Of a DNA stretch of 64,000 bases, positions 1,170-63,541 are shown in pieces. A program made the position numbers and the translations under genes. Source of the DNA: Alphaproteobacteria bacterium. Its GTDB lineage: Bacteria > Pseudomonadota > Alphaproteobacteria > MPNO01. The stretch's first letter is position 1. Every line of letters begins with the position of its first letter. Under the pieces are notes generated by a model, which worked only from the letters and a program-made list of their open reading frames with translations, had not been told where the DNA came from and ran no database searches. The stretch lies in contig OZ219866.1 of NCBI GenBank assembly GCA_964291675.2, positions 3,456,001 to 3,520,000 on the forward strand, written 5' to 3'.

Positions 1170-1183
1170 ACGCCGGCCGGGGG

Positions 1184-2800
1184 ATGGCCGATCGTCCGCG
1201 CGTCGTCGTCGTCGGGGGCGGCCCGGTCGGGCTCGCGCTCGCCGTCGATCTGGGCTTGCGCGGCGTCGCCTGCACCCTGGTCGAGCGGCGCACCGAGCCC
1301 CACCGCATCCCCAAGGGCCAGAACCTTACCCAGCGCACGCTCGACCTGTTCTATTCCTGGGGCATCGCCGACGAGCTGCGCTCCCGGCGGGTCATCCGGC
1401 CCGGCTTCCCCGGCAACGCCATCGTCGCCTATGGCGACCTCGCGGGCGCGCACTGGTTTGCCGGCGTCTACCGGACCGCGGTCGACAAGTACTACTTCCA
1501 GCGGAGCGAACGGCTGCCGCAATACCTCACCGAGCAGGTGCTGCGGGACCGCCTCGCCGGGATCCCGGCGGTCGGGGTGAGGGAGGGCTGGTCCGCCGAA
1601 GCGGTGCGGCAGTCGGCGGGCGGCGCCGCCGTCGACATCGCCGAGCAAGGCGGCACCGTGCGCGAAACCGTCGAGGCGGACTATGTCGTCGGCTGCGACG
1701 GCAGCCGGTCCACGGTGCGCGACAGCGCGGGCCTCGCCTCCGGCGGAACCGATTACGAGCAGACCATGGTGCTCGCCGTGTTCCGCTCGCCCGCGCTCGG
1801 CGAGCGGCTGAAGCGCTTTCCGCCGGCCTATATCTACCGGGTGGTGCACCCGGACCTGAACGGCTACTGGCGCTTCTTCGGGCGGATCGACGAGCATGAG
1901 GGCTGGTTCTTCCACGCGCCCGTAGGCTCGGCGGAACGGAGCGAGGCGGGGGTCCGCGCGCTGCTCCGCGAGGCCGCCGGCTTCGAGTTCGACTGCAGCT
2001 TCGAGCATATCGGCTACTGGGATCTGCGCGTCTCGATTGCCGAGGCGTTTCGCGCGGGCCGCGTGTTCATCGCCGGCGACGCGGCGCACAGCCACCCGCC
2101 CTATGGCGGGTACGGTCTCAATACCGGGTTCGAGGACGCGGCCAATCTGGGGTGGAAGCTGGCGGCGGTGCTGCAGGGCTGGGGCGGCGACGCCCTGCTC
2201 GACTCCTATAGCGAGGAGAGGCAGGAGGTGGCCAGGGACACGGCGGCGGAATTCATCGACAGCCGGATCTCCGCCGACCGCGAGCTGTTCGACCGGATCC
2301 ACCCCGAACGCGACGCCGAGGCGTTCGCGCGCGGCTGGGCGGCTTATGCCGAGGCCGGGAACAGGCATTTGAACAGCTACGCGCCCCATTACGAGGGATC
2401 GACCGCGATCGCCGGCCCGCAAGGCGGGGTCACCGGCGCCGCATCGGCGCGCAGCGAGCGGGCGCGGCCGGGCCACTACTTGCCGCCGTGGCGGCTCGCT
2501 TCGGGGCGCAACGTCTTCGAGGAGCTGGGGCGCGGGTTCACCCTGGTCGCGCTCGGCGCCGCCGACGCGAGCATCGCTCGCCTCCAGCGCGCCTGCGCGG
2601 AACGCTCGATCCCGCTCAAAATCGTCCGCGGGCCGGCGCCCGAGAGCCTGGGCGCCGGTCTCGTCCTGGTCCGCCCGGACGGCTACGTCGCCTGGGCTGG
2701 CGACGCCCCCCCGGAAAGCGCGGACGCGCTGATGGCGCGGGTGACGGGTTCGGCTACCCGCCCATCAGGCCCGGCAGGTAGAGCGTCAGCCCCGGGATGA
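1184..2800 (+). CDS. FAD-dependent monooxygenase (PheA/TfdB-like aromatic hydroxylase)
   Basis: MADRPRVVVVGGGPVG, VGCDG, FIAGDAAHSHPPYGGYGLNTG, LVRPDGYVAW; start is internal to the 404..2800 ORF. Confidence 0.9.
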   Translation: MADRPRVVVVGGGPVGLALAVDLGLRGVACTLVERRTEPHRIPKGQNLTQRTLDLFYSWGIADELRSRRVIRPGFPGNAIVAYGDLAGAHWFAGVYRTAVDKYYFQRSERLPQYLTEQVLRDRLAGIPAVGVREGWSAEAVRQSAGGAAVDIAEQGGTVRETVEADYVVGCDGSRSTVRDSAGLASGGTDYEQTMVLAVFRSPALGERLKRFPPAYIYRVVHPDLNGYWRFFGRIDEHEGWFFHAPVGSAERSEAGVRALLREAAGFEFDCSFEHIGYWDLRVSIAEAFRAGRVFIAGDAAHSHPPYGGYGLNTGFEDAANLGWKLAAVLQGWGGDALLDSYSEERQEVARDTAAEFIDSRISADRELFDRIHPERDAEAFARGWAAYAEAGNRHLNSYAPHYEGSTAIAGPQGGVTGAASARSERARPGHYLPPWRLASGRNVFEELGRGFTLVALGAADASIARLQRACAERSIPLKIVRGPAPESLGAGLVLVRPDGYVAWAGDAPPESADALMARVTGSATRPSGPAGRASAPG

Positions 2801-3203
2801 ACACGATCAGCGCCAGGCGGACGATGTCGGCGACGAAGAACGGGCTGATGCCGGCGAAAATGCCCCACAGCGACATCTCCGGCATGATGGTCTTGAGCAC
2901 GAACACGTTCATGCCGATCGGCGGCGTGATCAGGCTGATCTCGGTCACCATGATGACTACGATGCCGAACCAGATCAGGTCGAAGCCGAGGCTCTGGACC
3001 ACGGGGAAGAAGATCGGCACGGTCAGCAGGATCATGCCGATGCCCTCGAACACGCAGCCCAGCGCGATATAGATCAGGCAGATCACCAGCACGACGGTGA
3101 TCGGGGCGATCTCCAGCGAGTTCACCCAGTCGACGATCTGGTTGGGCATACCCGAGATGTTCATGAAGTTGGACAGGATGATCGCGCCGAAGGCGACGCT
3201 GAA
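2754..3203 (-). pseudogene. dctM: TRAP large permease DctM, 3' fragment cut by IS66 composite
   Basis: FSVAFGAIILSNF...FDLIWFGIVVIMVTEISLITPPIGMNVFV; reading frame continues beyond 16787. Confidence 0.85.
3196..3203. repeat. Target-site duplication, left copy ACGCTGAA (right copy 16780-16787)
   Basis: Identical 8-mer abuts both outer IS66 ends; 8 bp is the IS66 TSD length. Confidence 0.9.
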
Positions 3204-3374
3204 GTAACCCTCCGGCGTAGGCCGCCTGTTGAGCAGGCGCAGGCTTTCAGCGGGGATTGGGGGCTGATCCGCTTGGATTAATCGAGGTTTTGGGGAAGGT
3301 GCCCCCCGGCGATCTTGCAAGAAGGCCGCCGGAGGGCTTGTCTCGGTGACAGCTACATCAACTGAGACGCCCCA

Positions 3375-3989
3375 ATGTCGCACAAGCTGTTCCGTCACTC
3401 CATCCTCTGCAACGCCCGGGTTTGGGACTTTCTGAAGCAGGTCGACGCAGCCGAGGCGGAGGCCTGCCGTGCGGTGGGCTGTCCTCACTGCGGCGGGACG
3501 CTTCACAGCGCGGCCTACCCTCGCAAGCCGTACGGTCTGGCGGCGGATCTTCGGGACGATGTGCGGCGCTTCAGCCTGTGCTGTTCGGTGTGCAGGCGCC
3601 GGGTGCGTCCTGCCTCGGTGCGTTTCTTCGGTCGGAGGTTCTACGTCGGTGCGCTGTTCCTGCTGGTGAGCGCACTGGCGCTGACCGGCGGGGTGCGGTT
3701 GCAGACGATCGCGCGGCGCTGTGGGGTTCCGGTCTCGACGCTGAAGCGCTGGCGTCGCTGGTGGCTGGACGCCTTCCCGGCGACCCCGGAGTGGGCGGCG
3801 AAGCGGGGCGAGCTGGCGACACCGGCCGGGGAAGCGCCTGTGCGCCGGCTGCTGCGCCTGATGCGGGGCCGGGGCCTGCGGGCGCGGCTGCTGCGGAGCC
3901 TGGTCTGGCTGATGCCGTGGACCGGTTCTTGCGCGCTCGGCGCCGGGCCGGCTTCGCCCGCAGAAAGCGTTTCTGTCATGAACGGATAG
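3375..3989 (+). CDS. Cys-rich Zn-finger plus HTH protein (transposon accessory)
   Basis: CPHCGG and CCSVCRRR cysteine pairs; HTH-like IARRCGVPVSTLKRWRRWW. Confidence 0.7.
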   Translation: MSHKLFRHSILCNARVWDFLKQVDAAEAEACRAVGCPHCGGTLHSAAYPRKPYGLAADLRDDVRRFSLCCSVCRRRVRPASVRFFGRRFYVGALFLLVSALALTGGVRLQTIARRCGVPVSTLKRWRRWWLDAFPATPEWAAKRGELATPAGEAPVRRLLRLMRGRGLRARLLRSLVWLMPWTGSCALGAGPASPAESVSVMNG

Positions 3990-4038
3990 GGGCTCTTACA
4001 CCGGCATCTCCCCAACAGGGCGAGGGAGGGATGCCGGG

Positions 4039-5493
4039 ATGGACAGCAACGACGGGAGCGAGCGTCGCGACCGGTGGGCGCGGCTGCGCTTCGCGGTGGT
4101 CGGGCCGCTTCTGGCCTCGCCGCCGCCGAAGGGGAAGCTGCGGGCCGAGCTGGAGCGGCTGGCCGGACGCGAGTGGGAACATCCGTCCGGCAAGGGGCCG
4201 GTGCGCTTCTCGGCCTCCACGATCGAGCGCTGGTACTACCAGGCGCGGGCGCAGGAGCAGGACCCGGTCAAGGCGCTTCGCCGAAAGCCACGGGCCGACA
4301 TCGGCCGCGAACGGGCGATATCGGCGGCACTGATCGAGGTGTTGCGCGATCAGTACCGGGCGCATCCGTCGTGGTCGGCACAGCTGCACCATGAGAACCT
4401 GGCGGCGCTGGTCGCGGCCGATCCGGCGCTCGGCCCGATGCCGTCCTATGCGACGCTCACCCGGGCGATGCGGGCTCGCGGGCTGGTGCGCAAGCGCCGG
4501 CGCAAGTGGCACGAGAGCGAGGCGCGGCCGCCTGTCCAGGCCCGCGAGGTACTGAGCTACGAGGTCACGCGCAGCCACGCCCTGTGGCACAGCGATATGC
4601 ATACCGCCAAGTGTCGTGTGCTGACGGCCTCGGGCGAGTGGAAGACGCCGATCCTTCTGGGCTTTCTCGACGACCACTCCCGGCTCGGCTGCCACCTTCA
4701 GTGGTATCTCGCCGAGACCGCAGAGGTCTTCGTCCATGGGCTGTGCCAGGCGTTGATGAAGCGGGGCCTGCCGCGGTCCCTGCTGACCGACAACGGCTCG
4801 GCGATGACCGCCGGCGAGGTCGAGGAAGGGTTGCTCCGGCTCGGCATCGCGGGGGTCACGACGCTCGCGTACAGCCCGCATCAAAATGGAAAGATCGAGA
4901 CTTTCTGGGGCACGGTCGAATCACGCCTGATGGCCCAGCTCGAAGGCGTCGACGCGCTCACCCTGAAGATGCTCAACGACGCCACCGTCGCCTGGCTGGA
5001 GCAGGACTATCACCGCCGCGAGCACCGCGAACTCGGCATGTCGCCGCATCGGCGCCTCGCCGGGAGCGTCGACGCATCGCGGCCCTGCCCCGGCGCGGCC
5101 GAGCTCAAGGCGGCCTTCCGCATCACGAGGAAGCGCATGCTCCGGCGCTCGGACGGCACCGTCTCGGTCGAGAACATCCGCTACCAGATACCGCCGCCGT
5201 GGCGCCACCTGCGCGAGGCCTGGGTCCGCTATGCGCGCTGGGACCTCAGCAGCGTCGATCTGGTCGACGGCCGGGGCGGCGAACGGCTGTGCACGCTCTA
5301 TCCCCTCGACAAGCGCGGCAACGCCGATGGTGTGCGCCGTCCCATCGGCCCCGGCGACGACGATGGCAAGGGCGGCGAGGGGACAGGCGGACTGCCGCCG
5401 CTGCTCAAGAGCATGCTCGACGCGCAGGCTGCAACCGGCCTGCCGCCGGCATGGCTTGCCTTCGATGACACCCGCGATGATGGAGAACGCTGA
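4039..5493 (+). CDS. DDE (rve) transposase/integrase, Mu/IS481/IS21-like
   Basis: N-terminal HTH (SASTIERWY); catalytic LWHSD, LLTDNGSA, NGKIETFW; C-terminal DGTVSVENIRY. Confidence 0.9.
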   Translation: MDSNDGSERRDRWARLRFAVVGPLLASPPPKGKLRAELERLAGREWEHPSGKGPVRFSASTIERWYYQARAQEQDPVKALRRKPRADIGRERAISAALIEVLRDQYRAHPSWSAQLHHENLAALVAADPALGPMPSYATLTRAMRARGLVRKRRRKWHESEARPPVQAREVLSYEVTRSHALWHSDMHTAKCRVLTASGEWKTPILLGFLDDHSRLGCHLQWYLAETAEVFVHGLCQALMKRGLPRSLLTDNGSAMTAGEVEEGLLRLGIAGVTTLAYSPHQNGKIETFWGTVESRLMAQLEGVDALTLKMLNDATVAWLEQDYHRREHRELGMSPHRRLAGSVDASRPCPGAAELKAAFRITRKRMLRRSDGTVSVENIRYQIPPPWRHLREAWVRYARWDLSSVDLVDGRGGERLCTLYPLDKRGNADGVRRPIGPGDDDGKGGEGTGGLPPLLKSMLDAQAATGLPPAWLAFDDTRDDGER

Positions 5494-6326
5494 TGAACCG
5501 CGAACACCTCACCCTGTACGGGCTCAAGTGGAACCCGTTCGCCCCTGACCTCCCGGTCGACAGCCTGATGGCGACTGGCGCCGTCGACAGCTTCTGCCTC
5601 AGGATCGAACGCCATCTCGTGCGCCACGGCGGCTTCGCACTGATCGCCGGAGAGCCCGGAACCGGAAAGAGCGTTGCCCTGCGCCTGCTCGCCCACCGGC
5701 TCGGGCGATGCGACGGGCTCAGGGTCGCCGCCATCACCCACCCGTCCTCGAGACTGTCGGACTTCTACCGCGAGATCGGCGAGCTGTTTGGCGTCGACCT
5801 GCTGTACAACAATCGCTGGGCCAGCTTCAAAAACCTGCGCCAGCGCTGGCTCGCGCATCTCGATGACACCCGCATGCGCCCGGTGTTGCTCATCGACGAG
5901 GCCCAGGAACTGCTGCCCTCGGTGTTCTCCGAGATCCGCCTGCTCGCGTCGACCGACTTCGACTCGCGCGCCATCCTCTCCGTCGTCTTCGCCGGTGACA
6001 ACCGCCTGCTCGACCGGCTCCGCCAGCCCGACCTGCAGCCCATCGCCTCGCGTATCCGACAGCGTCTGCTGATGACCCGGACCGAGGACGCCGACCTGGC
6101 CGGCCTGCTCGACCATCTGCTCGAAGAGGCCGGCAATCCGGCGCTGATGACCGCCGGGCTCAGGGACACCCTCGTCACCCATGCCGCAGGAAACCCCAGG
6201 GCACTCACCGTCATGGCTGATGCCGTGCTCGCAGCCGGTGCCGAGAAGGATCGCGAGGTGCTCGACGAGAAGCTCTTCATCGAGACCCTCGGCGAGGCAC
6301 CGCCAGCCAGGCGGGCCCGGCGATGA
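5493..6326 (+). CDS. ExeA-like AAA+ ATPase (transposition helper)
   Basis: YGLKWNPF, Walker A GEPGTGKS, Walker B LLIDEAQ, GNPRAL; TGATG coupling to the transposase. Confidence 0.85.
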   Translation: MNREHLTLYGLKWNPFAPDLPVDSLMATGAVDSFCLRIERHLVRHGGFALIAGEPGTGKSVALRLLAHRLGRCDGLRVAAITHPSSRLSDFYREIGELFGVDLLYNNRWASFKNLRQRWLAHLDDTRMRPVLLIDEAQELLPSVFSEIRLLASTDFDSRAILSVVFAGDNRLLDRLRQPDLQPIASRIRQRLLMTRTEDADLAGLLDHLLEEAGNPALMTAGLRDTLVTHAAGNPRALTVMADAVLAAGAEKDREVLDEKLFIETLGEAPPARRARR

Positions 6327-7312
6327 CCGGCTTCCCGACACGGCCACCGGCCGAACTCGAGGAGCGGCCGCGGGAGCGGCAGTGGCTGGTCGATGCCCTG
6401 TGGAGCGAACAGGGGGTCGGCATCGTCGGCGGCGAGCCCAAGTGCGGCAAGTCCTTCCTCGCGCTGGACCTCGCCGTCGCGGTGGCTGCAGGAGTGCCCT
6501 GCCTGCGCCACTTCCGCCCCGCGGCAAGCGGCACCGTGTTGCTCTTCGCCGCCGAGGACGCCGGTCACATCGTGCGCGACCGCCTCAAGGGCATCGCCCG
6601 GGCCGCCGGCGCCGACTTCGAGGCCCTCGACATCGCCGTCATCGACGTGCCCACGCTCCGCCTCGATCATCGCCTCGACCGGCAGCGGCTGCTGGAGACC
6701 GTCGAACGGATCGGACCGCGCCTCCTCGTCCTCGATCCCCTGGTCCGCCTGCATGGCGTCGACGAGAACGCGGTTGCGGAAGTCGCTCCCATCCTCGGCT
6801 TCCTGCGCGACCTGCAGCGCCGCTTCGGGACCGCTGTGCTGCTCGTCCACCACGCTCGCAAGAGTGGCGCCAGCCGCCCCGGCCAGGCGCTGCGCGGCAG
6901 CAGCGAGCTGCATGCCTGGGGCGACAGCAATCTCTACCTGCGCCGGCGCGACGGGCAGATCGTCATGACCGCCGAGCATCGCGCCGCACCCGGCCTCAAC
7001 AATATCGAGATCGAGCTTGCCGATGACGGCGAAGGACCAGCGCTGCAGCTCCGGCGGACAGGACCTCACCAGGCTCCGCCGCAGCCGGACAGCGCCGAAC
7101 AGCGGATCGCCCAGGTGCTCGCGACAGCCGAATCCCCACTCGTGCAGTCCGAGATCCGAAAACGCGCCGGGGTACGCAACGCGACTGTCTCCGCGGCACT
7201 GCACGGGCTTGTGCGCGAGGGACGGGTCGAGCGCGGGACGGGAGGTCGCTACCGCTTCCTCGGAACCGCGGCGAACCAAGCCGACAACCCGACGGACAGC
7301 CACAACCCGTAG
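6323..7312 (+). CDS. AAA_25/RepA-like RecA-fold helicase with C-terminal winged helix
   Basis: QWLVDALW, GGEPKCGKS, LLVLDPL, LLVHHARK, LRGSSEL; ATGA overlap. Confidence 0.8.
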   Translation: MTGFPTRPPAELEERPRERQWLVDALWSEQGVGIVGGEPKCGKSFLALDLAVAVAAGVPCLRHFRPAASGTVLLFAAEDAGHIVRDRLKGIARAAGADFEALDIAVIDVPTLRLDHRLDRQRLLETVERIGPRLLVLDPLVRLHGVDENAVAEVAPILGFLRDLQRRFGTAVLLVHHARKSGASRPGQALRGSSELHAWGDSNLYLRRRDGQIVMTAEHRAAPGLNNIEIELADDGEGPALQLRRTGPHQAPPQPDSAEQRIAQVLATAESPLVQSEIRKRAGVRNATVSAALHGLVREGRVERGTGGRYRFLGTAANQADNPTDSHNP

Positions 7313-7327
7313 GCGAAGCAGCCCCTC

Positions 7328-7381
7328 TTCCCGTTCCCGTTCCGGCGAACCCTTAAGCGTTGCAGGGAACGGGAACGGGAA
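7328..7381. repeat. Perfect 16-bp inverted repeat built of GGGAAC hexamers
   Basis: TTCCCGTTCCCGTTCC (7328-7343) / GGAACGGGAACGGGAA (7366-7381). Confidence 0.85.
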
Positions 7382-7694
7382 CACCAGCGCACAATGCCCC
7401 ACGAAACTGCCTGAAGCGATCGGCCAATGGCCGAAAGCTCTGCTTACGGCCATGGCAGCCCTCTGGCGCGGGGACGGCGGCGGGTCACCCGAAGGGCCGT
7501 AGCGGAGCGAAGGAGCCGCGAAGCGGCTTGAAGCGCCGACGGCCTCGCGACACTCCCCGCCCGGCCTTCCTGCAAACGGCAGACGATCCCCATCGAATAA
7601 CGCGAAATCCGCACCATCAAACAACGTGCGCGCGCTCACTGTTCCGATGGGGGGCGTTTGGTGGGTCTGAGTGCTTGGGAAGTGGGCCCTTGTT

Positions 7695-7724
7695 AAGTGT
7701 CCACTTAGCGGCAAGTGGACACTT
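7695..7724. promoter_or_regulatory. 12-bp inverted repeat over the tnpA start region
   Basis: AAGTGTCCACTT-N6-AAGTGGACACTT. Confidence 0.55.
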
Positions 7725-8146
7725 GGCCGATGTCGGTTGCGAGTGAGAAGCCGGGCGCGGGAAGCGGTGAGACGGCCGATCGGCGGCGCCGTCGGTGGAG
7801 CGAGGCTCAGAAGCGCCAGATCGTCGCGGAGAGCCATGAGCCTGGGGTTTCGGTGTCGGTCGTTGCGCGGCGTTACAACGTCAATGCCAACCAGGTCTTC
7901 ACCTGGCGTCGGCGGTTCCGCGAGGCGGCGCGCGACGCCGGGGCTGGCCGGTTGGTGCCGGTGGTGGTCGAAGCGCCTTGCGACGGGGAGGCCGGCGCGT
8001 CGGCGCCGTGCCGGTCGTCCGGGGACGTTGTCGCGGCGGCGGGGCGGATCGAGATTGCGCTGGCGTGCGGCGCGCGTGTGATCGTCGGCCGGGCGGTGGA
8101 CGGTGTGGCTCTGGCCCGGGTTCTTGCGGTTCTGGATCGGCGATGA
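7715..8146 (+). CDS. tnpA: IS66 TnpA (HTH)
   Basis: RRRRWSEAQKRQIVAES...VARRYNVNANQVFTWRR; start may be ATG 7730. Confidence 0.9.
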   Translation: MDTWPMSVASEKPGAGSGETADRRRRRWSEAQKRQIVAESHEPGVSVSVVARRYNVNANQVFTWRRRFREAARDAGAGRLVPVVVEAPCDGEAGASAPCRSSGDVVAAAGRIEIALACGARVIVGRAVDGVALARVLAVLDRR

Positions 8147-8490
8147 TCCCGGTTCCGGGTGGTGTGCGGGTGTGGCTGGCGACCGGGGTGACGGACATGC
8201 GTCGCGGCATGAACACGCTGGCGCTGCAGGTCCAGGAGGATCTCGGGCGCGACCCTCACGCGGGCGATCTCTACGTTTTCCGGGGCCGTCGCGGCGACCT
8301 GATCAAGATTCTCTGGCACGACGGGGTTGGGATCTCGCTGTATGCCAAGCGGCTTGAGCGGGGCCGGTTCCAGTGGCCGACCACGTCTGGGGGCGCGGTG
8401 TCGATCGGCGCGGCGCAGCTCGGCTACCTGCTGGAAGGGATCGACTGGCGGAATCCGGTTCGGACCTGGCGGCCGTCGCGGGCGGGCTGA
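8143..8490 (+). CDS. tnpB: IS66 TnpB accessory protein
   Basis: MIPVPGGVRVWLATGVTDMRRG...LYAKRLERGRFQWP. Confidence 0.92.
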   Translation: MIPVPGGVRVWLATGVTDMRRGMNTLALQVQEDLGRDPHAGDLYVFRGRRGDLIKILWHDGVGISLYAKRLERGRFQWPTTSGGAVSIGAAQLGYLLEGIDWRNPVRTWRPSRAG

Positions 8491-9971
8491 TCGGCGGGGG
8501 AGCCGTGCGGTCGGCGCGATTGTTGTAGCGCCGAATCGGGTGCTGTGATTCGATTCCGCCAATGACCGGCGGATCCAACATTGCATCTCTGAAGGCGGCG
8601 CTTGCGGCGGCCGAGGCGCGGGCCGCGAACGCCGAGGCGAAGGTGTCGGACGCCGAGGCGGAGATCGCTTTCCTCAAGCTGGCGGTCGAGAAGCTCCGGC
8701 GCGAGCTCTACGGGCAGCGCTCGGAGCGCAAGCAGCGGCTTCTCGACCAGCTCGAGCTGCAACTCGACGAGCTTGAGGCGAACGCGACGGAGGACGAGCT
8801 GGCGGCCGAGCAGGCGGCGGCCGGCACGACCGAGGTCAAGGGGTTCACGCGGCGCAAGCCGGCCCGCAAGCCGTTCCCGGCGCATATTCCGCGCGAGCGG
8901 AAAGTGGTTCCGCCGCCGACATTCTGCGCGTGCTGCGGCTCGGAGAAGCTGTCGAAGATCGGCGAGGACGTGACCGAGACGCTGGAGGCGATCCCGCGCC
9001 AGTGGAAGGTGATCCAGACGGTGCGCGAGAAGTTCACCTGCCGGGCTTGCGAGAAGATCGGCCAGCCGCCGGCGCCGTTCCACCCGACGCCGCGGGGCTG
9101 GGCTGGCCCCAACCTGCTGGCGACGATCCTGTTCGAGAAGTACGGGCAGCACCAGCCGTTGAACCGCCAGCGCGACCGCTACGCGAGGGAGGGTATCGAT
9201 CTCAGCCTGTCGACCCTGGCCGACCAGGTGGGCGCGTGCACGGTGGCGCTGAAGCCGCTGCACGATCTGATCGAGGCCCATGTCATGGCGGCGGAACGCC
9301 TGCATGGCGACGACACCCCGGTGCCGGTGCTGGCCAGGGGCAGGTGCGCCACCGGGCGGGCCTGGGTCTATGTGCGCGATGACAGGCCGTTCGGCGGTCC
9401 GGATCCGCCGGCGGCGCTGTTCCGCTACGCGCGGGACCGGTCCGGCGCTCACCCGGTCGCGCATCTGGAGACCTTCGCCGGCATCCTCCAGGCCGACATC
9501 TACGCCGGCTACAACGCCCTCTATGTGGCCGGGAGATTGCCCGGGCCCGTGATCGAGGCTGCGTGTTGGGCGCATTCGCGAAGGAAGTTCTTCGATCTCG
9601 CCGACATCGCGGCCGGGAAGAGGCGCGGCAAGGACCCGCCGCCGGTCTCGCCGCTCGCGCTGGAGGCGGTGAAGCGGATCGACGTGCTGTTCGATATCGA
9701 GCGCGGGATCGTCGGCAAGTCCGCGGAGGAGCGCCTCGCCGTGCGCCGGGAGTTGAGCGCGCCGGTGCTGGCCGAACTCAAGGAGTGGATGCGGGCCGAG
9801 CGCGTGAAGCTGTCGAAACATGCCCCGGTGGCCAAGGCGATGGACTACATGCTCAGGCGCTGGGAGCTGTTCGCCCGCTTCCTCGACGACGGCCGCATCT
9901 GCCTCACCAACAATGCCGCCGAGAGGGCGCTCAGAGGTATTGCGACGATGGAGTCATTCTGCACCCCTTCT

Positions 9972-12044
9972 TCAAGTGTCTGAAAACATTGACATCTGAT
10001 CCCGACATGAAGCGCGACGCGGGTCTTTCCGCAGTGCCAGGGCGTTGGCGACCCGCTCGGAATGGAGGTCTTTGGCCCTGATTTGCCAGGGCGCTCCGGG
10101 AACGAGTTGCGTGGCAGGTAGCGTTCCATCCTCGATCAGGCGCCTGAGGGTATGGCTGGTCGTGCCCAACTCTTTCGCCGCCTCGGTCATGGTGCGCCAG
10201 TCGCCCTGCTTGTCCGCTGAGAGGTAGCCGTCGATCCCGTTCACACGCCGGATCGATCCGACCCGGTGAGCGGTCCAACTCTTGTGCTGCCCGGTCCGCA
10301 TACCCATCCGGTTGAGCGACGCGGCGATATGTTCGTCCGACCATCGCCCGGCCATGCTGCGTATCACTGCCAGAGCTTCCTCGGGCGTTCGGCAGCCATG
10401 TTCGCCGCTCTTGGGCTTGCGGACCCTGAGACGGGAATGACGGCCACCCATCCAGTGGATCGTCAGCAGGACGTCACGCGCCTCTTCGTCGACATCGACG
10501 ATTATGCCCATGATCAGGGTGCGCACGAGACGCTGGCGGGCGCGCATGCTCACCCCGGGCGCGTTCCAGGCGGCCTTCAGGTCGTCGGCAAGTCCGGCCA
10601 GGTCGGGGACAGTGGGCCGCGGCGACGGCATCGCGCCCAGCCTTGCTTCGCACGCCTGGACGCGTCGAAGCGCTGCCTCCCAACTCTTCTCCAGCTCGGC
10701 GGCGATCAGCCGGTTGTCCGGATCGCAGGCGGCGTAGCGCCGCTCGGCGAGCGCCGCCTCGTAGCGGGCTTGCTGCAGATCCAGCTCGGCCACCCGTTGC
10801 TGTTCGGAAAGACCCTCCGCGTTCATCCGCTCGGCTTCCAACGAGGCTTCCACCGCCATGGGCTCCACGACGCGGAGGATCTCATCGGCAACGGCCGCAT
10901 CCACACGCGCACCCCCGAACCCCAGACAGGGCTCTAGCTCGAGCTGGAGGTGTCGCCGATTGCAGCGGTAGACAGGATTGCCGGGCGTGCGACCGGAATA
11001 GGCAACGCTCATCGTGCGTCCGCAGCGTGCGCAACTGAGGAGGCCGCCAAGAAGCGCCCGCCCGCCGCGCCCCGACTTCGTGCCCCCCGCCTTGCCGAAG
11101 GCATTGGCGGCGAGCTGCGCCTGGTTGCGCTCGAACTCCGGCCAGTCGATGTAGCCCTCGTGATGGTCCTTCAGCACGACCTCCCATTCCGCCATCGGCT
11201 TGCGGTGTCCATAGCTCTTGCGCACGCGCCCGTCGACGATCTCGGTCCGCCGCTCGCTTTTGCCGTAAGCGTAGACCCCGGCGTAGAAAGGGTTCTTCAA
11301 CACCGAAATTACGTTGCGATAGCGGATCGGCGTCCAGTCGAAGGAGACCATTGTCCTGCCATCCGACGGGCGTGGGAAGCAAAGCTTCTGCCCGCTCAGC
11401 GCCAGCAACACCTGCCGCGCGCTGCCAAGCTCGCGAAACCGGGCGAATACCTGACGGATCGCTTCCTGAACCCGAATGTCGGGGTCCAGCCCCAGCCCGG
11501 CCTCGGGATGCCAGACGTAGCCGATCGGGACGCTGATGCGAAGCTCGCCGCGGGCGGCCTTGGAGCGGGCGGCCTCGAACATCCGAGCGCGCAGAACGCC
11601 GAGTTCGAACTCGCTGATCTGGCCCTTCATGCCGAGCAGCAGACGATCGTTGGGGTGGCGAGGATCGTAGATGCCATCCTGGTCGATGACGCGTGCCTCG
11701 ACGAGACCGCAGAGCTCGAGAAGATGGTGCCAGTCCCGGCCGTTGCGAGAGACCCGCGAAGCCTCGAAACAAAGCACGGCTCCAACGTCCCCGGCGCACA
11801 GCCAGGCGACGAGGCGCTCGAAACCGGGCCGCGCAACGGCACCGTCCGCCGACAGGCCCTGATCGTCGTCGATGACTTCGACCCGGGCAAAGCCGTGCCC
11901 GCGCGCCACATCGACGAGATCGTATTGGCGGCGCTGGCTCTCCAGATTGTTCCGCATCTGCTGGGGCGTGGACTGACGGACATAGACCACGGCCTTGCGC
12001 GTCAACACCGATCGCGGCAACGCTTCAGCGACGCCCATCGTCAT
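9972..12044 (-). CDS. Large serine recombinase (resolvase + recombinase + Zn ribbon + C-terminal HTH)
   Basis: AVVYVRQST, EASRVSRN, NPFYAG, CARCG, DPDNRLIAAELE. Confidence 0.92.
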   Translation of the reverse strand: MTMGVAEALPRSVLTRKAVVYVRQSTPQQMRNNLESQRRQYDLVDVARGHGFARVEVIDDDQGLSADGAVARPGFERLVAWLCAGDVGAVLCFEASRVSRNGRDWHHLLELCGLVEARVIDQDGIYDPRHPNDRLLLGMKGQISEFELGVLRARMFEAARSKAARGELRISVPIGYVWHPEAGLGLDPDIRVQEAIRQVFARFRELGSARQVLLALSGQKLCFPRPSDGRTMVSFDWTPIRYRNVISVLKNPFYAGVYAYGKSERRTEIVDGRVRKSYGHRKPMAEWEVVLKDHHEGYIDWPEFERNQAQLAANAFGKAGGTKSGRGGRALLGGLLSCARCGRTMSVAYSGRTPGNPVYRCNRRHLQLELEPCLGFGGARVDAAVADEILRVVEPMAVEASLEAERMNAEGLSEQQRVAELDLQQARYEAALAERRYAACDPDNRLIAAELEKSWEAALRRVQACEARLGAMPSPRPTVPDLAGLADDLKAAWNAPGVSMRARQRLVRTLIMGIIVDVDEEARDVLLTIHWMGGRHSRLRVRKPKSGEHGCRTPEEALAVIRSMAGRWSDEHIAASLNRMGMRTGQHKSWTAHRVGSIRRVNGIDGYLSADKQGDWRTMTEAAKELGTTSHTLRRLIEDGTLPATQLVPGAPWQIRAKDLHSERVANALALRKDPRRASCRDQMSMFSDT

Positions 12045-12210
12045 CCTCCTTCACCGGGGCGGTCGCCGCTTCCAGAAGCAACCCGGCCACTGCGCTCACC
12101 ACCGCGTCTCGTTCCTCCGAGCTCAGACCGCGCAGCGTCGGTGCGTCGAGCGGCATGCCGAGCTGTCGGGGTTCTCTCGGCGGTCGCGCTGTTACAGGCA
12201 AAGACTTCAT
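12025..12210 (-). CDS. Small protein overlapping the recombinase start
   Basis: MKSLPVTARPPREPRQLGMPLD...LLLEAA with GAGGAG Shine-Dalgarno; same frame as the longer 12025..12543 ORF. Confidence 0.6.
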   Translation of the reverse strand: MKSLPVTARPPREPRQLGMPLDAPTLRGLSSEERDAVVSAVAGLLLEAATAPVKEDDDGRR

Positions 12211-12526
12211 CGCGCTCCTCTCCGCTAACGGTTCCGTCATCGGGGGAGCTATGTCGAAAACCTGGCCGACGAGAAGCTCGTGAAGTGCGGCGAGGGCGGC
12301 CGGGGAGGCACGCGGCGCGCCGATCTCCATGCCGGCGCATGACGCAGGATCAAGCATCCAGGCGGGTATCTTGATGATCAGCCCCGGCTCTACCTCGACG
12401 GAGGCCATGAGGCCGTCTGCACGCTGTTCGATAACTTCAGGGCGTACTCGCCGACCGAACAGTGCGTGCCAGCGGTAGTGGATGACGCAATCCTGCCCGA
12501 TATGGGCAGAATGAATGCGCGATCGC
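12211..12526 (-). CDS. Accessory ORF body whose start lies at the other element end (completed on excision)
   Basis: IHSAHIGQDCVIHYRWHALFGRRV...IPAWMLD; in frame with ATG at 9957 across attP. Confidence 0.55.
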
Positions 12527-12856
12527 CCTGGGCCGCAAGTCATGGCTCTTCGCCGGCTCGGACCGCGGCGGCGTACGCGCGGCGGCGATGTACACGCTCA
12601 TCGGCACCGCCAAGCTCAACGATGTCGATCCGCAGGCCTGGCTCGCCGACGTGCTAGACCGAATCGCGGACACGCCGCAGACCAGGCTCGAAGAACTCCT
12701 CCCCTGGAACTGGGTTCGGGAACAGAAGCTCGATCAGGCCGCATAGAGCCTGCCCCCGCGAAGGCGGGGGCCAGATCGCACGCGGACCGTTTCGCTCCGA
12801 GCCAGCTGCTGCTCAAAATCAGACTGAATACCCCTGCGGTCTTCGGCGGATGCTTA

Positions 12857-14773
12857 GAGTGCCAGGCTAACTGGTGGAAGGGTAGCGGGTGAAAGTCCCG
12901 CGAAACGAAAGGAGTAGCCAACCACGTTTCTCCGCGAGCCGTGCATCGTCGGCCGTGAGGCCGGGGGTGAAGCGTCGGTAGCGGTGCATGCGGGCAGGGA
13001 TATTGAGCGCCGAAAACGAGATGGTCCGAAGTGCCGAGACGTTTAAGCTCGTCGAAGGCAACATCGTCCACACCGCAATATGGCGAGGTGTGGGGGAGCT
13101 TCGCGGCGTCGGGGACCCCATGCACGCATGTAAGCCCACCACCGGGACCTGGGAGGTCTTCACACTGCCCCGATGGTCGTATCGGGGCCGCGAAGGGAAG
13201 GAGGTATCCGAAGCCTGAGATGAACGGAGTGAAGAAGTCGGACGGGGCCATAGTACCGTCGAAGCGGGCGAACAACGGGGCGCGAGCCTCTGCGGAGTCC
13301 GTGGAGGAAAGGGCCTCGACCAAGGGGAATCCGCGAAGCGAAAGCACGCGCCGGACGCAGAGCCGGGAAAGCGTGACCCAGGCCGCCGAGCGGATACGTC
13401 AAGCTGCAACGAGGAAACCGCAGGAGAAACTGACGGCGCTCCTGCATCATGTCACGCCGGACGCGCTGCGCTGGGCCTTCCACGCGCTGAAGCGGGACGC
13501 CGCGGCGGGGGTGGACGGCATGACATGGGCCGAGTACGCGAACGGGCTGGAAGAGCGGCTGCTCGACCTGCACCGGCGCGTACAGTCCGGGGCGTATCGG
13601 GCGCCGCCGGTCCGGCGGGTAGAGATACCCAAGCCGGATGGCGGGACACGACCGCTCGGCGTCGCCGCGCTGGAGGACAAGATCGTCCAGAAGGCGGTGA
13701 CGGAGATCATCCTGACGCCGATCTACGAGCCGGTCTTCCTCGGCTTCAGCTACGGGTTCCGACCGGGGCGCGGGGCGCATGACGCACTCGACGCGCTTGC
13801 TGTCGCCATCAATCGGCGGAAGGTCAACTGGGTGGTCGACTGCGACATCCAAAGGTTTTTCGATTCTGTTTCGCGGGACTGGCTCGTCCGGTTCCTTGAG
13901 CACCGGATCGGGGATCGGCGGGTGATCCGGCTGATCGCCAAGTGGCTGAAAGCCGGCGTCATGGTCGATGGCCGGTGGGAGGACACGCAGCAGGGCACGC
14001 CGCAAGGGGCGATCGTCTCAGCCACGCTGGCGAACGTGTATCTGCACTATGTCCTCGACCTCTGGTTCCATCGCAAGTGGCGGCCCGAAAGGGCAGATGG
14101 CGATGCCATCATCGTACGCTACGCCGATGATGTGGTCGTCGGCTTCCAGCGCAAGAGGGACGCGGAACGCTTCCTGCATGCGCTTGGGGAACGGCTCGGC
14201 CAGTTCGATCTGGCCCTGCATCCGGCCAAGACCCGGCTCATCGAGTTCGGCAGGTTCGCGGAAGTGGACCGCCGGGCACGGGGGCTGGGCCGCCCGGAGA
14301 CGTTCGACTTCCTGGGCTTCACGCACTATTGCAGGACGACCAGGAGCGGGCAGTTCGGGCTCGGACGCAAGCCCGTTGCAAAGCGGATGAGCCGCACCCT
14401 GAAGCGCATCGCGGAGGTTCTGCGGCGGCGCAGGCACCACGACCTCCACGAGGTCGCCCGGTGGCTGGGGCGGGTAGTCAACGGATGGCTGAACTACTAC
14501 GCCGTCCCGACGAGTGCCCGCTTCCTGCGAAGCTTCACCTACATCCTGAAACGGATATGGCTGAAGGCGCTGCGCCGACGGTCGCAACGGGATCGCTTCA
14601 GCTGGCAACGGCTGCAAGCCCTGGTTGACCGATACTGGCCCAAGCCATGGATCCGACACCCGTGGCCGGGGCAGCGGTTCGACGTCAAATACCCGAGGTA
14701 GGAGCCGGATGGCTTAACGGCCACGTCCGGATCTGTGCGGGGGGCGCCGGGAAACCGGCGTCCCTACCGCGAC
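12857..14773 (+). mobile_element. Group II intron 1 (1,917 nt) in IS66 right inverted repeat
   Basis: 5' GAGTG (GUGYG variant); domain V GAGCCGGATGGCTTAACGGCCACGTCCGGATC; domain VI ending CCCTACCGCGAC; EBS1 loop TAAGC 13044-13048 pairs with exon GCTTA. Confidence 0.88.
13220..14701 (+). CDS. ltrA: Group II intron reverse transcriptase/maturase (no endonuclease domain seen)
   Basis: AAGVDG, IPKPDGGTRPLG, FSYGFRPGR, GTPQG, RYADD, FDFLGF; start uncertain. Confidence 0.93.
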   Translation: MNGVKKSDGAIVPSKRANNGARASAESVEERASTKGNPRSESTRRTQSRESVTQAAERIRQAATRKPQEKLTALLHHVTPDALRWAFHALKRDAAAGVDGMTWAEYANGLEERLLDLHRRVQSGAYRAPPVRRVEIPKPDGGTRPLGVAALEDKIVQKAVTEIILTPIYEPVFLGFSYGFRPGRGAHDALDALAVAINRRKVNWVVDCDIQRFFDSVSRDWLVRFLEHRIGDRRVIRLIAKWLKAGVMVDGRWEDTQQGTPQGAIVSATLANVYLHYVLDLWFHRKWRPERADGDAIIVRYADDVVVGFQRKRDAERFLHALGERLGQFDLALHPAKTRLIEFGRFAEVDRRARGLGRPETFDFLGFTHYCRTTRSGQFGLGRKPVAKRMSRTLKRIAEVLRRRRHHDLHEVARWLGRVVNGWLNYYAVPTSARFLRSFTYILKRIWLKALRRRSQRDRFSWQRLQALVDRYWPKPWIRHPWPGQRFDVKYPR

Positions 14774-14774
14774 C

Positions 14775-15032
14775 CTTGCGCAGTTCGGATTGCGCGTTGA
14801 AGTAGTCGACGCAACTGCTGACAAAGATATTCGCGCCGGCCCTGGCGGTCGCCTCGATTGCCGATTCGAACATGCGCGGCGCCTTGTTCACGCGCCCGGT
14901 CTCCGACACCTCGGCAAGGATGCCCTGCGGCACGCGATCCAGAGCCCGCATCACCCGGGTTGTGACGTGTGGTAGCCCACCACTCGCCCCTTCGTAAGCG
15001 CGCCACCAGCGCACTTTCCACATAGCCAGCAC
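14775..15032 (-). pseudogene. Hypothetical ORF truncated at the IS66 end
   Basis: Open frame (..MRALDRVPQGILAEVSETGRVNKAPRMFESAIEA..) running into the IRR; no family recognised. Confidence 0.3.
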
Positions 15033-15067
15033 CCCCTCTCGGGGGCCGCGGCTTCGTTCAAACAGGT

Positions 15068-15097
15068 TCAGCAGGCTCGCTCACGCGAACCTGCTGA
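15068..15097 (-). terminator. Stem-loop downstream of the FGE gene
   Basis: Minus strand TCAGCAGGTTCGC-GTGA-GCGAGCCTGCTGA. Confidence 0.45.
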
Positions 15098-15166
15098 GCC
15101 CTAAAGATTTGCGCGGCTCCCCTTCCATGCCCGGTTCCCGGGTCGGGCCCGCGAAATAATCCCGCG

Positions 15167-15181
15167 GGGGGCTCCGCCCCC
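15167..15181 (-). other. GC hairpin with GGA loop, DGR target-recognition-like
   Basis: Minus strand GGGGGC-GGA-GCCCCC, about 27 nt after the FGE stop codon. Confidence 0.65.
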
Positions 15182-15208
15182 GGACCCCCGAGGTAAACAA
15201 GTAAGGAC

Positions 15209-16159
15209 TCAAGGCGTAAGCGTCCGGGCAACGCGGAAGCCGAAGGTGACGACCCGATTCCCGACACTGTACCCGAGGCGGATGGCGGAACGGAGGAACC
15301 ACGGTATGTTGCTCCACGAACCGCCGCGCAATATGCGCTCCCCGCAATCACCGCCCGCCACCCAAGCGCTGCCGTCCGACGGTGCGCCCGCATAGTCACT
15401 GTGCCAGCAGTCCTCGACCCATTCCGATACATTGCCCGACATGTCATGCAAGCCGAAACCGTTCGCCGCAAATGAACCAGCCGGAGCCGTTTCACGGCCG
15501 TCCCAGCGGCTGCCGCAGCCGCGGCAGTTCGCCCGGTTCCGGCCCACCGAATCCCCCCAGCTATAGCGCGTCCGCGTCTTCGCGCGCGCCGCATATTCCC
15601 ACTCCGCCTCCGTCAACAGCCGGTACTCCTTCCCCGTCTTCCGCGACAGCCACGCGACATACGACCGCGCTTCGTTCCAGTTCACATGGATGACCGGCCG
15701 ACTTCCACGGCCCCAGCCCTTGTCATCGGGGCGATACCCGTCGCACCCGCCAGCGGATACGCAGGTATCCCATTCCGCAAACGTCACCTCGTGTTTGCCC
15801 ACCGCAAAGGGTTGCGAGATCATCACCTCATGCTGCAGGACTTCATCTCCGTCACGGCCTACTTCCGACCTCGGCGAGCCCATGACGAACGAACCCGCCG
15901 GCACCACCACCATTTCCGGACAGGACGGGCAATCCCGGAATGTTTCCCCCGCCTTCGGCCCCACTTCCGCTTCGGCCAGCAGCGCCGTCGGAACAAACCC
16001 CGCACGCCCGCCTGCCTCGACACGGCCCGCTGCGTCATGCAGCGCAATCTCTTCTGCTGCCTTTACAACATCTTCAACGCTTCCGGCTGTTCCGTGGCTG
16101 GCAAGAAGCGAAGCGGCTACGAAGGCCACGGCGGAGAGGGTACGGGCTATGAGTTTCAT
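15209..16159 (-). CDS. Secreted FGE-sulfatase (SUMF1)/CLec-fold protein, probable DGR target
   Basis: Signal peptide; FRDCPSCPEMVVVPAGSFVMGS, RLLTEAEWEYAARA, NGFGLHDMSGNVSEW, RGGSW...GFRVARTL. Confidence 0.9.
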   Translation of the reverse strand: MKLIARTLSAVAFVAASLLASHGTAGSVEDVVKAAEEIALHDAAGRVEAGGRAGFVPTALLAEAEVGPKAGETFRDCPSCPEMVVVPAGSFVMGSPRSEVGRDGDEVLQHEVMISQPFAVGKHEVTFAEWDTCVSAGGCDGYRPDDKGWGRGSRPVIHVNWNEARSYVAWLSRKTGKEYRLLTEAEWEYAARAKTRTRYSWGDSVGRNRANCRGCGSRWDGRETAPAGSFAANGFGLHDMSGNVSEWVEDCWHSDYAGAPSDGSAWVAGGDCGERILRGGSWSNIPWFLRSAIRLGYSVGNRVVTFGFRVARTLTP

Positions 16160-16246
16160 GTTGGCACCATCATCAGATCGTTTGTCGTCGGCGCGATCCG
16201 CTTCAGTATCTCATTGTACTGCTCTTCGTCCTCGTCCCACTCAGGC
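16156..16246 (-). pseudogene. 3' remnant of upstream gene cut by IS66 copy B
   Basis: PEWDEDEEQYNEILKRIAPTTNDLMMVPT*, with TGA overlapping the FGE ATG (ATGA). Confidence 0.45.
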
Positions 16247-16779
16247 GTAACCCTCCGCTGAGGACCGCCTTTTGTCAATCGGCTTTCAATACTGACCCCC
16301 TATATCGGCGTGCAAAATTAACCCCCTGAGAGGCACGGCGGAGGTTGTCCCGGTAGCCAATAGGGGGGACCCGCGCGGCTTCGTGTAGCGCCTTGCGTTA
16401 CGCGAAGCGAAGCCGCGTGGGGGGTCCCTGTTGGCTACCGGGGTATCGCCCTCGGAAGACGCAGTTGGTTGTTCGCCGGCTCCGACCGCGGCGGCGCCCG
16501 TGCGGCGACGATGTACACGCTCATCGGCACCGCCAAGCTCAACGATGTCGATCCTCAGGCCTGGCTCGCCGATGTGCTCGGCCGCATCGCCGAGACGCCG
16601 CAGAGCCGGCTCGACGAACTCCTCCCCTGGAACTGGGTCCCGGAGCAAAAGCTCGATCGCGCAGCATAGAGCCGGCCCCCGCGAAGGCGGGGCCGGACCC
16701 CGCCCGGCGCTTAATCGCCAGCATCGCCCCGCCGACAAACTCAGCCCGAATTAGCCCGCGGTGTTCGGCGGATGCTTAC
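16247..16779 (+). mobile_element. IS66 copy B, internally deleted (533 bp): IRL + IS21 end + tnpC 3' end + IRR
   Basis: GTAACCCTCCGCTGAGGACCGCC; GIALGRRSWLFAGSDRGG...LLPWNW (about 16442-16669); TTCGGCGGATGCTTAC. Confidence 0.85.
16273..16442. mobile_element. IS21-family terminal remnant with long hairpin
   Basis: TGTCAATCGGC start; two ATCGGC..AA.A.T.ACCCC repeats; hairpin CCCGGTAGCCAA (16349-16360) / TTGGCTACCGGG (16431-16442). Confidence 0.65.
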
Positions 16780-16787
16780 ACGCTGAA

Positions 16788-17410
16788 CACCATGGCGGTG
16801 GTCTGGTCGGCCTCGATGAGCGCGCTGCAGAACCCGCGCCAGCCCATCTTCCTGCGCGAGACCGCGAAGGCGACCGCGCCCACCGCGCCGATCCCGCCCG
16901 CCTCGGTGGGGGTGCCCGGCACCTTGGTGAGGTGCTTGACGTAGGGCGTCATCTTGAGCTTCCAGACGTCGCCGATCGGGAAGACCAGCCCGTCGACGAT
17001 CCCCTTGGACACCACGTCGAACGCCTTGACGCCCGGCGTGAGTACGACCGCCGCCCCGTCCGGCCGACCGCCTTGGCGACGTCGCCCGGCGGCGAGCGCA
17101 GCTTCATCCGCTTCATGTCCGCCACCGACAGGATGGGGTCCTTGAGGCTGAACAGCTCCCCGCCGCCATGCATGACGTAGCCGAGGAACTTGACGCCCTT
17201 GTGCTGGTTCTTGGCCTCGAAATACTTCTTGTGGGTGCGCCAGAGCGCGGTCGCGGTCGAGGCCGCGTCGGTGATGCTGAAGGGGAGCGTGCCCACCTGG
17301 TCGAGCGACAGCCGCTTGCGCTCGAAATTGTTGTACATCACCGTCGCATCGGCGATGCCGGAGGTGATCATCTTCCACTGGCGCGGCGCCGGCGCCAGCG
17401 GTTGTCTCAA
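16788..17410 (-). pseudogene. Decayed TRAP locus: frameshifted dctP fragment fused to mid-dctM fragment
   Basis: DMKRMKLRSPPG...GIVDGLVFP (DctP) joins TPTEAGGIGAVGA (DctM) near 16915; frameshift near 17055. Confidence 0.75.
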
Positions 17411-24807: not shown

Positions 24808-26790
<1,983 letters not shown>

Positions 26791-63434: not shown

Positions 63435-63464
63435 CCGATCGAAGACGAGGCCGTTGCGTGGGCT

Positions 63465-63541
63465 TGGTGGGCCCGGCAGGACTTGAACCTGCGACAACGC
63501 CGTTATGAGCGGCGCGTTCTAACCAGCTGAACTACGGGCCC
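63465..63541 (-). tRNA. tRNA with CAT anticodon, most likely tRNA-Ile2 (lysidine)
   Basis: GGGCCCGTAGTTCAGCTGGTTAGAAC...CTCATAA...GGTTCAAGTCC...GGGCCCACCA, 77 nt with encoded CCA. Confidence 0.9.

Follow-up and report, generated by a model that had tools for sequence, protein, structure and literature searches.

We analysed a window of 64,000 nucleotides of alphaproteobacterial DNA (contig OZ219866.1, positions 3,456,001 to 3,520,000; all coordinates below count from its first letter) and found in it a block of 13,576 bp (3204-16779) made up, in this order, of an IS66-family insertion sequence (IS) that we call IS66-A, a short cargo and a second IS66-type unit, IS66-B. Judged from the sequence, the block is probably an IS66-family compound transposon that moved as one unit by its two outer ends, which is the best reading of the region. 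IS66-A has itself been invaded by three other mobile elements, one of which, encoding a large serine recombinase (LSR), sits in the transposase gene tnpC and may belong to a family that lives on IS66. The features are collected in Table 1.

Evidence that the block is a unit comes from its borders. The 8-bp direct repeat ACGCTGAA lies immediately outside the block on either side, in contact with ends of the IS66 type, which read 3204 GTAACCCTCCGG... on the left and ...GGCGGATGCTTAC 16779 on the right. Given the base composition, the chance of finding this repeat at a given place is P = 7.9e-6, and about 0.5 copies are expected per strand of the window; a third copy occurs at 3738, within a nested element, and there are none on the other strand. 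An 8-bp direct repeat is also what the accessible part of PMC3281130 lists for the IS66 members ISPpa5a and ISPpa7. The inner flanks, CTTGCGCA (14775-14782) and ACTCAGGC (16239-16246), are unlike each other and unlike the outer repeat, and the flanks of all other end pairings mismatch; the matched 8-bp repeat is confined to the outer IS66 ends. From the positions of the inner flanks it follows that IS66-B begins at 16247 and that the cargo, between it and IS66-A, measures 1,472 bp. Two ISs of one family thus surround a cargo and a duplication is found at the outer ends only, as is expected of a compound transposon, and this distribution of the repeat is the one that IS66-family transposition of the whole block predicts. 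The preliminary description of this DNA had reported the repeat against the outer ends and the lack of a matching duplication at the inner ends, and we recovered both, the former with the same coordinates.

The block interrupts a coding frame. When 3204-16787 was deleted in silico, the minus strand contained an open frame across the junction, and residues 178-366 of its product aligned, without a gap at the junction, to residues 377-566 of a 568-residue DctM paralogue encoded elsewhere in the window. The proposal that removal of the block restores dctM in frame holds for the open frame and for the seamless alignment, but what is restored is not a complete gene: the DctM part of the target comprises only the last ~190 residues and is fused upstream to a frameshifted DctP-like fragment, indicating that the target is a gene remnant. 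The composite therefore appears to sit in what is left of a tripartite ATP-independent periplasmic (TRAP) transporter operon, whose decay may have preceded or followed the insertion. The DctP-like fragment has lost the first ~45 positions of its profile, carries its frameshift near 17075 and is fused directly to the dctM 3' codons; a Rieske oxygenase gene ends just beyond it, at 17448.

IS66-A has the hallmarks of its family, namely the gene trio with a DDE_Tnp_IS66 domain in tnpC, imperfect ends starting with GTAA (its left and right inverted repeats, IRL(A) and IRR(A), agree at 15/20 positions) and the 8-bp duplication. In silico removal of the three invaders yielded an IS of 2,662 bp with both copies of the CTGT that flanks the first of them, or of 2,658 bp with one, and an open TnpC of 533 aa. 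This is identical to the result of the preliminary description, which had subtracted 4,409+4, 2,583 and 1,917 bp. The three nested insertions are independently confirmed by uninterrupted IS66 stretches in related loci. In an Azospirillum plasmid locus (L003) and in L005, one of six loci from metagenome-assembled genomes (MAGs) that carry the cargo gene, tnpC is continuous across the recombinase site, the L005 tnpC being 81% identical to that of the window. The right end of the L005 IS66, without intron, reads ...GGATGCTTAC (also given as ...CGGATGCTTAC). In L005 and a second MAG locus, L008, an unbroken IS66 left end crosses the insertion site of the Tn6049-like transposon with a single CTGT (GTA.CCATCCGGCGTAGGCCG.CTGTTC...), and the alignment to window 7639 onward begins 4 nt short of where the match to 3204-3229 ends. 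We also noted a 479-aa 'recombinase family protein' annotated in L003 (Azospirillum sp. TSA2s plasmid p1; locus positions 1139-4528), immediately upstream of the unbroken IS66 transposase and on the same strand, in the place expected for tnpA and tnpB.

The second IS66 unit is of another kind. We confirmed that the cargo lies between IS66-type units, but the units are not two copies of one IS as had been supposed. IS66-B measures only 533 bp and consists of a left end of ~100 nt, a 94-nt near-perfect palindrome (16349-16442), 76 tnpC codons and a right end; tnpA and tnpB are absent, leaving just the ends where an IS66 would have both ends and a transposase. Over the 334 nt that A and B have in common at the 3' side identity is 81%, and no identical run exceeds 46 nt. 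Their right ends agree at 19/20 and 23/26 positions, and their left ends at 20/26 positions, being unrelated beyond ~26 nt. By these comparisons IS66-B is the relic of a different IS66 lineage and not a copy of IS66-A. Homology of IS66-B to tnpC, and to hundreds of plasmid IS66 copies, resumes at 16439, abutting the palindrome and 9-10 nt from the crossover site of the recombinase. As the preliminary description had stated, neither unit contains an intact TnpC: that of A is split by the recombinase element, and B keeps its 76 codons. The block, consequently, cannot move itself at present.

The cargo consists of the 5' fragment of an ORF (open reading frame) without assigned family and a complete gene, whose PvdO-like product has the formylglycine-generating-enzyme (FGE) fold and PvdO (PDB 5hha, E = 7e-59) as its closest solved relative. 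The left 370 nt of the cargo (14775-15144) matched no Pfam or NCBIfam family even at E = 5 and had no homologue in the loci that we fetched. A scan of species-representative genomes with the cargo protein matched 608 stretches, 482 of which encode relatives, and 80 were kept, corresponding to 79 distinct loci. Six of these (L005-L010), all MAGs and from six other species, contain the cargo gene; nucleotide identity is 97.7-98.2% over at least window 15145-16159. At a point common to all six, the gene's 3' flank meets the 5' portion of tnpA from a third IS66, which is 77-80% identical to IS66-A where the two can be compared (two loci retain only its last ~70-80 nt); at this point the window carries instead the 370 nt of unique sequence.

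Two of the six loci are especially informative. L010, in a different genomic setting, matches the window along the 87 nt lying upstream of the cargo gene, along the flank ACTCAGGC and into IRL(B) for its first 11 nt, after which a fragment of an IS256-family transposase follows. Since the junction between cargo and IRL(B) recurs there, it was not made in place and predates the insertion into dctM. In L005 the same cargo gene is part of a 9,239-bp unit that lies between an IS66 left and an IS66 right end and has an 8-bp duplication of its own, TAACATTC; the unit also holds an IS3 fragment, a related serine recombinase, a frameshifted tnpC and three passenger genes. On the reading of these junctions, IS66 ends have moved the cargo gene more than once. 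Fragments of IS66, IS3-family and IS256-family elements surround the gene in the six MAG loci, inserted at slightly differing points near its start codon, and mark a very active shared mobilome. The end search also found, in all six, an IS66-end-like sequence, GTAAGCGTCCG, near 15216; we rejected it as a left end because the homology continues to 15145.

The history that best fits these data would begin with the independent insertion of two different IS66-family elements on either side of a short foreign segment, formed by the truncated ORF and the gene for the putative periplasmic PvdO-like protein. An IS66 transposase would then have taken IS66-A's left end and IS66-B's right end as its substrates; it may have come from IS66-A itself while its tnpC was still whole, from a tnpC restored by excision of the recombinase element, or in trans from another copy. 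The whole block would thereby have entered the 3' remnant of the chromosomal dctM, generating the ACGCTGAA duplication, and the three other mobile elements would have entered IS66-A before or after this move. The junctions, duplications and restored frames are observed; the order of events and the source of the transposase are what we infer. Movement of the block as a unit by its outer ends, already proposed in the preliminary description, is likewise inferred, and is supported by the outer-only repeat and by the L010 junction.

Several points weigh against this history. The other copies of the composite that the preliminary description had suggested looking for were not found, either in the window (which has no further IS66 repeats), in the plasmid collection or among the 79 cargo-protein loci. 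No plasmid covered at least 80% of the block, the best identities (80-90%) being to tnpC only, and a search of the plasmids with the cargo plus IS66-B gave just matches to the tnpC 3' part and a weak match to the cargo gene. As no second copy was found, movement as a unit is no more than probable. The MAG units are also built differently, with the cargo abutting the truncated tnpA of a third IS66, so that they establish an IS66-linked mobility of the gene and not of the composite in the window. Because the two IS66 lineages differ, recognition of IRR(B) by the transposase of A is assumed from the likeness of the ends. A compound transposon should encode a working transposase, which this block would have only after exact excision of the recombinase element. 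Finally, the window may derive from an assembly unchecked against reads.

A variant of the compound-transposon reading would fix the order of events by means of the group II intron in the right end of IS66-A. This invader possesses both the ribozyme domains and the reverse-transcriptase/maturase ORF of such introns: the Rfam model D1D4-6 (RF02005) matched at 12892-13118 with 170 bits (gathering score 49), D5-D6 (RF00029) matched over its full length at 14700-14773, ending exactly at the last base of the intron, with 32.4 bits, below its gathering score of 40, and the ORF scored 369 bits with NCBIfam group_II_RT_mat (cut-off 300). The intron splits the right end into GCTTA and C, one base from the tip, and its removal restores GCTTAC. 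In our own reading of the alignment, a domain-I loop (13042-13049) carries UAAGC (13044-13048), complementary to GCUUA, the last five bases of the exon (12852-12856), as a 5-nt candidate pairing of an exon-binding site. Its nearest plasmid-borne relatives, from Skermanella, Burkholderia, Rhizobium and Sinorhizobium, show ~66-68% identity to the intron, and the alignments stop at window 14772-14773, except that of the top match, which stops at 14782. According to the accessible part of PMC4615759, the related intron RmInt2 homes into the inverted repeats of ISRm17, and Sr.md.I1 is found in an IS66 transposase ORF. Like RmInt2, the intron of the window is a bacterial group II intron with a reverse transcriptase/maturase that appears to use the terminal repeat of an IS as homing site; its position one base from the tip of an IS66 right end differs from those of both RmInt2 and Sr.md.I1. 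If the intron entered IRR(A) first and disabled this end, the transposase would have had to use IRR(B), and the composite would have been forced. The position of the intron, the candidate pairing and the precedent of RmInt2 fit this idea. However, nothing dates the intron relative to the move, and ordinary compound transposons arise without damage to an inner end, for which reasons we regard a forced origin, attractive as it is, as rather unlikely. A second group II intron, of another Rfam type, occupies 24834-26790 of the window (D1D4-4 at 24834-24976, reverse-transcriptase ORF at 25127-26638, D5-D6 at 26647-26790), just upstream of a DctP-family gene.

The outer duplication could also have been made by something other than the block. 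If a plain IS66 had inserted first into dctM and generated ACGCTGAA, an incoming IS66-A, cargo and IS66-B might have replaced it by homologous recombination, with a first crossover within the IS body and a second within the 3' 330 bp, without any transposition of the unit. Exactly the observed flanks would result, IS66 relatives are abundant in this community, and the identical runs of up to 46 nt between the 3' parts of A and B would be enough for RecA-dependent exchange. Such a replacement requires, however, that the resident IS closely resembled A at its left side and B at its right, when A and B are themselves only 81% identical over the 334 nt and unrelated on the left beyond ~26 nt; it needs more events than a single transposition, and no plain IS66 is known at the dctM site, the relatives' alleles of which were not searched. 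We therefore consider it improbable.

More improbable still is that the block, or part of it, is a chimera assembled from repeated IS66 sequences of several strains. The closest relatives of the cargo are all MAGs rich in IS66, IS3 and IS256 fragments, and repeats of this sort are the usual cause of misjoins. Against this stand four independent junction signatures that close on themselves: the 8-bp duplication at the outer ends, the one of CTGT, the tnpC frame that is kept across the recombinase element and GCTTAC across the intron. A misjoin would not produce them. That the IS66-B relic, which does have an IRL-type and an IRR-type end, inserted alone in dctM, with IS66-A and the cargo added beside it in place, hardly deserves credence, because the flanks of the relic mismatch (ACTCAGGC and ACGCTGAA) and L010 has the ACTCAGGC-IRL(B) junction with the same 87 nt and the cargo gene in another context.

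The compound transposon proposed here can be compared with known ones. Tn5 and Tn10 are classical compound transposons in which one IS is defective. As in these, two ISs flank a cargo in the window, the outer ends were apparently used, the duplication is restricted to them and one IS is defective; the differences are that the ISs belong to another family, with poorly known chemistry, that they are direct repeats from different lineages, and that the defective partner has lost ~80% of its length. Within the IS66 family, the accessible part of a preprint describes an 8-kb guuH-bguH region flanked by IS66 on Pseudomonas plasmids (bioRxiv 10.1101/2025.04.28.651035). The block shares with this region the cargo between IS66 elements, and with ISPpa5a and ISPpa7 of Paracoccus, as far as the accessible part of their description goes (PMC3281130), the tnpA-tnpB-tnpC trio, the GTAA ends, the 8-bp duplication and a length of ~2.7 kb. 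In contrast to those systems, the window has a 533-bp relic of another lineage as one partner, and the complete IS holds three invaders, which makes the unit currently non-autonomous.

Table 1. Features of the composite block and of its target site in the window
Feature	Coordinates	Strand	Basis or remark
dctM remnant, 3' piece, 149 codons + stop	2754..3203	-	Pfam DctM profile positions 278-413
Left target-site duplication ACGCTGAA	3196..3203	.	flank sequence and composition
IS66-A (IRL, tnpA, tnpB, tnpC, IRR)	3204..14774	+	2,658 bp after removal of three nested elements
IRL(A), 26-bp tip, still beside flank	3204..3229	+	end comparison
Tn6049-like transposon, 4,409 bp	3230..7638	+	CTGT at 3226-3229 and 7639-7642; ends TGAGC...; 26 bp inside left end
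Helix-turn-helix (HTH) ORF	3375-3989	+	in Tn6049-like transposon
IS481-like DDE transposase	4039-5493	+	in Tn6049-like transposon
AAA_22 ATPase	5493-6326	+	in Tn6049-like transposon
AAA_25 + winged helix	6323-7312	+	in Tn6049-like transposon
IS66 tnpA	7730..8146	+	NCBIfam IS66_ISRel24_TnpA, 105.6 bits (cut-off 74)
IS66 tnpB	8143..8490	+	NCBIfam IS66_TnpB, 114.5 bits (cut-off 50)
tnpC 5' part, codons 1 to ~460	8562..9940	+	Pfam LZ_Tnp_IS66, zf-IS66, DDE_Tnp_IS66; NCBIfam transpos_IS66, 397 bits (cut-off 180)
LSR element, 2,583 bp	9941..12523	-	boundaries ambiguous within repeated AT.GC
LSR gene, 690 aa, uninterrupted, N-terminal VYVRQST	9972..12044	-	Pfam Resolvase, Recombinase, Zn_ribbon_recom, HTH_17
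orf172, conserved ORF without family	12025..12526	-	conserved coding region starts at most 3 codons from right boundary of element
tnpC 3' part of IS66-A	12524..12750	+	in silico joining
IRR(A) minus last base	12814..12856	+	last base C at 14774
Group II intron, 1,917 bp	12857..14773	+	one base from IRR(A) tip; reverse-transcriptase/maturase ORF ends at 14701
Cargo, 1,472 bp	14775..16246	-	unidentified ORF fragment and PvdO-like gene
5' fragment of ORF, 86 codons	14775-15032	-	no Pfam/NCBIfam family
PvdO-like gene, complete, 316 aa, FGE fold	15209-16159	-	Pfam FGE-sulfatase; PDB PvdO 5hha
IS66-B, non-autonomous relic, 533 bp	16247..16779	+	IRL-type end, palindrome, last 76 codons of tnpC, IRR
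Right target-site duplication ACGCTGAA	16780..16787	.	flank sequence
dctM remnant, 5' piece, 42 codons	16788..16913	-	NCBIfam dctM profile 220-262
DctP-like fragment, frameshifted	16914-17410	-	Pfam DctP profile 46-150

The element that splits tnpC of IS66-A has the properties of an LSR element: its recombinase combines a Resolvase catalytic domain containing the serine motif with Recombinase and zinc-ribbon domains, and the element has a single specific site and discrete ends. The match of the recombinase to NCBIfam recomb_XisF, 74.8 bits, is far below the cut-off of 375. Searches of plasmids revealed that the association with IS66 is not particular to the window. In the DNA search, single alignments ran from tnpC into the recombinase in Rhizobium and Ensifer plasmids, and the search with the recombinase protein returned 497 records, 152 of them at 60-80% identity. 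We inspected 13 plasmid loci: three DNA matches, biased to IS66 (L001, L002 and L004), eight from the top of a listing spread over eight genera (L084-L091), and two (L092 and L093) that are near-identical copies of one of these eight. IS66 TnpC was present on both sides of the element, and at the same TnpC position as in the window, in 12 of the 13 (L001, L002, L004, L084-L090, L092 and L093). In these, TnpC breaks off at residue 458 or 459 of the N-part of the window (...ER..R.) and continues from residue 1 of the C-part (A/G-x-x-R-K/R-x-x-L-F); the two points are 2,489-2,603 nt apart. Seven of the eight loci picked regardless of IS66 were positive, the exception (L091) having a truncated recombinase. 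The recombinases of all 12 loci are 66-71% identical to that of the window; for the flanking TnpC, identity spans 29-69% over the N-part and 37-85% over the C-part.

In the window and 10 plasmid loci the element runs antisense to tnpC; in two plasmid loci it is sense. The copy of Azospirillum sp. TSA2s shares 94.3-94.4% identity with two A. brasilense copies along precisely the length of the element, and this homology stops at the junctions; the flanking tnpC sequences are ~67-77% identical, and relative to tnpC the element lies the other way round. A palindromic GC, positions 1 and 2 of an Ala codon, is a crossover site that agrees with the junctions of either orientation; in the window it would lie at 9942-9943 and 12525-12526. 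Read at a fixed distance from the end motifs, the two junctions are both GC in 9/12 elements, GG/GG in one and AC/GC in two. From these alignments, GC is a likely but not certain crossover core. We rejected AT, which agrees with the window but in L092 would make the target six bases longer; GC suits both orientations. With serine integrases, a palindromic core permits either orientation. We also rejected the recombinase as the maker, in a canonical event, of the deletion in IS66-B, since homology there starts ~9-10 nt left of the presumed crossover and the sequence adjoining the start of B's tnpC is unlike the ends of the element; on the same evidence, 9941-16446 was rejected as a single recombinase-mediated insert in one IS66.

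Besides the recombinase, the element encodes orf172, which matches no Pfam family but is conserved and is present in 10 plasmid loci in addition to the window. Differences at codon positions 1, 2 and 3 number 587, 468 and 962 (36 codons, 11 sequences), the third being about twice the others, as in a coding region. When the elements were closed into circles in silico, an ATG from the other end of the element came to lie in frame with orf172 in 12/12, and the joining of the ends as a circle is the only arrangement that supplies it. As this in-frame ATG may follow in part from a fixed geometry of the binding sites, we treat it as a lead only.

These observations tentatively suggest that the 2.58-kb element is an autonomous parasite of IS66, with a single crossover in tnpC, that gates IS66 by its excision and has a second gene that is whole only in the circle, a proposal in which our confidence falls a little short of even. 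Integration would probably occur at the palindromic GC of the Ala codon in R-G/P-I/V/L-A-L/M-x-R-K, the most conserved stretch of tnpC, which would open to the element IS66 relatives with as little as 29% TnpC identity, in either orientation, and the element would ride its IS66 hosts between replicons and genera. Since exact excision would restore tnpC, the element would gate both IS66 transposition and the mobility of the composite. As the conserved coding part of the second gene begins within three codons of the junction, this gene would apparently be complete in the excised circle alone. No such recombinase element in tnpC of IS66 was described in the literature searched, judged by titles and abstracts. 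Large serine recombinases move Tn4451 and Tn5397, as well as the excising fdxN and skin elements. The element in tnpC resembles these in its recombinase, with Resolvase, Recombinase and zinc-ribbon domains, in its short imperfect inverted repeats and in the interruption of a gene at a fixed site, which exact excision would restore; it differs from them in that its target is the tnpC of another mobile element, in its size of only 2.6 kb with two genes, and in its occurrence in both orientations.

The remaining invader resembles Tn6049 of Cupriavidus metallidurans CH34 (our locus L094; accessible part of PMC2864759) in its order of genes, for a small HTH protein, an IS481-like DDE transposase and a GspA-like AAA_22 ATPase, and these three core proteins are 38%, 52% and 51% identical to those of Tn6049. 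It is longer than Tn6049 (4.4 kb vs 3.5 kb), and its additional AAA_25 and winged-helix gene has no counterpart in L094. The ends of Tn6049 on pMOL30 were not resolved by a simple inverted-repeat search. As to its surroundings, the window is G+C-rich chromosomal DNA, with dnaG and rpoD at 50.9-54.8 kb and many genes for aromatic catabolism and TRAP transporters. It also contains, at 57384-58079, four or five tandem copies of a 132-nt unit, ~78-79% alike, and at 62049-63541 a HipA-family kinase gene (Couple_hipA and HipA_C domains) that adjoins a tRNA gene at 63468-63541.

The composite offers a clean, fully readable case of IS66 elements picking up and spreading a gene, here one for a putative periplasmic PvdO-like protein that is ~98% identical across at least seven genomes. 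The block also displays mobile elements piling into one another, which is useful for annotation but not surprising. If IS66 transposase genes truly are the homing sites of the recombinase element and are restored when it excises, the element would be a mobile one that lives on, and maybe switches, another; such elements would also explain many of the 'IS66 family transposase | recombinase family protein' pseudogene calls on plasmids of rhizobia, Azospirillum, sphingomonads and Burkholderia.

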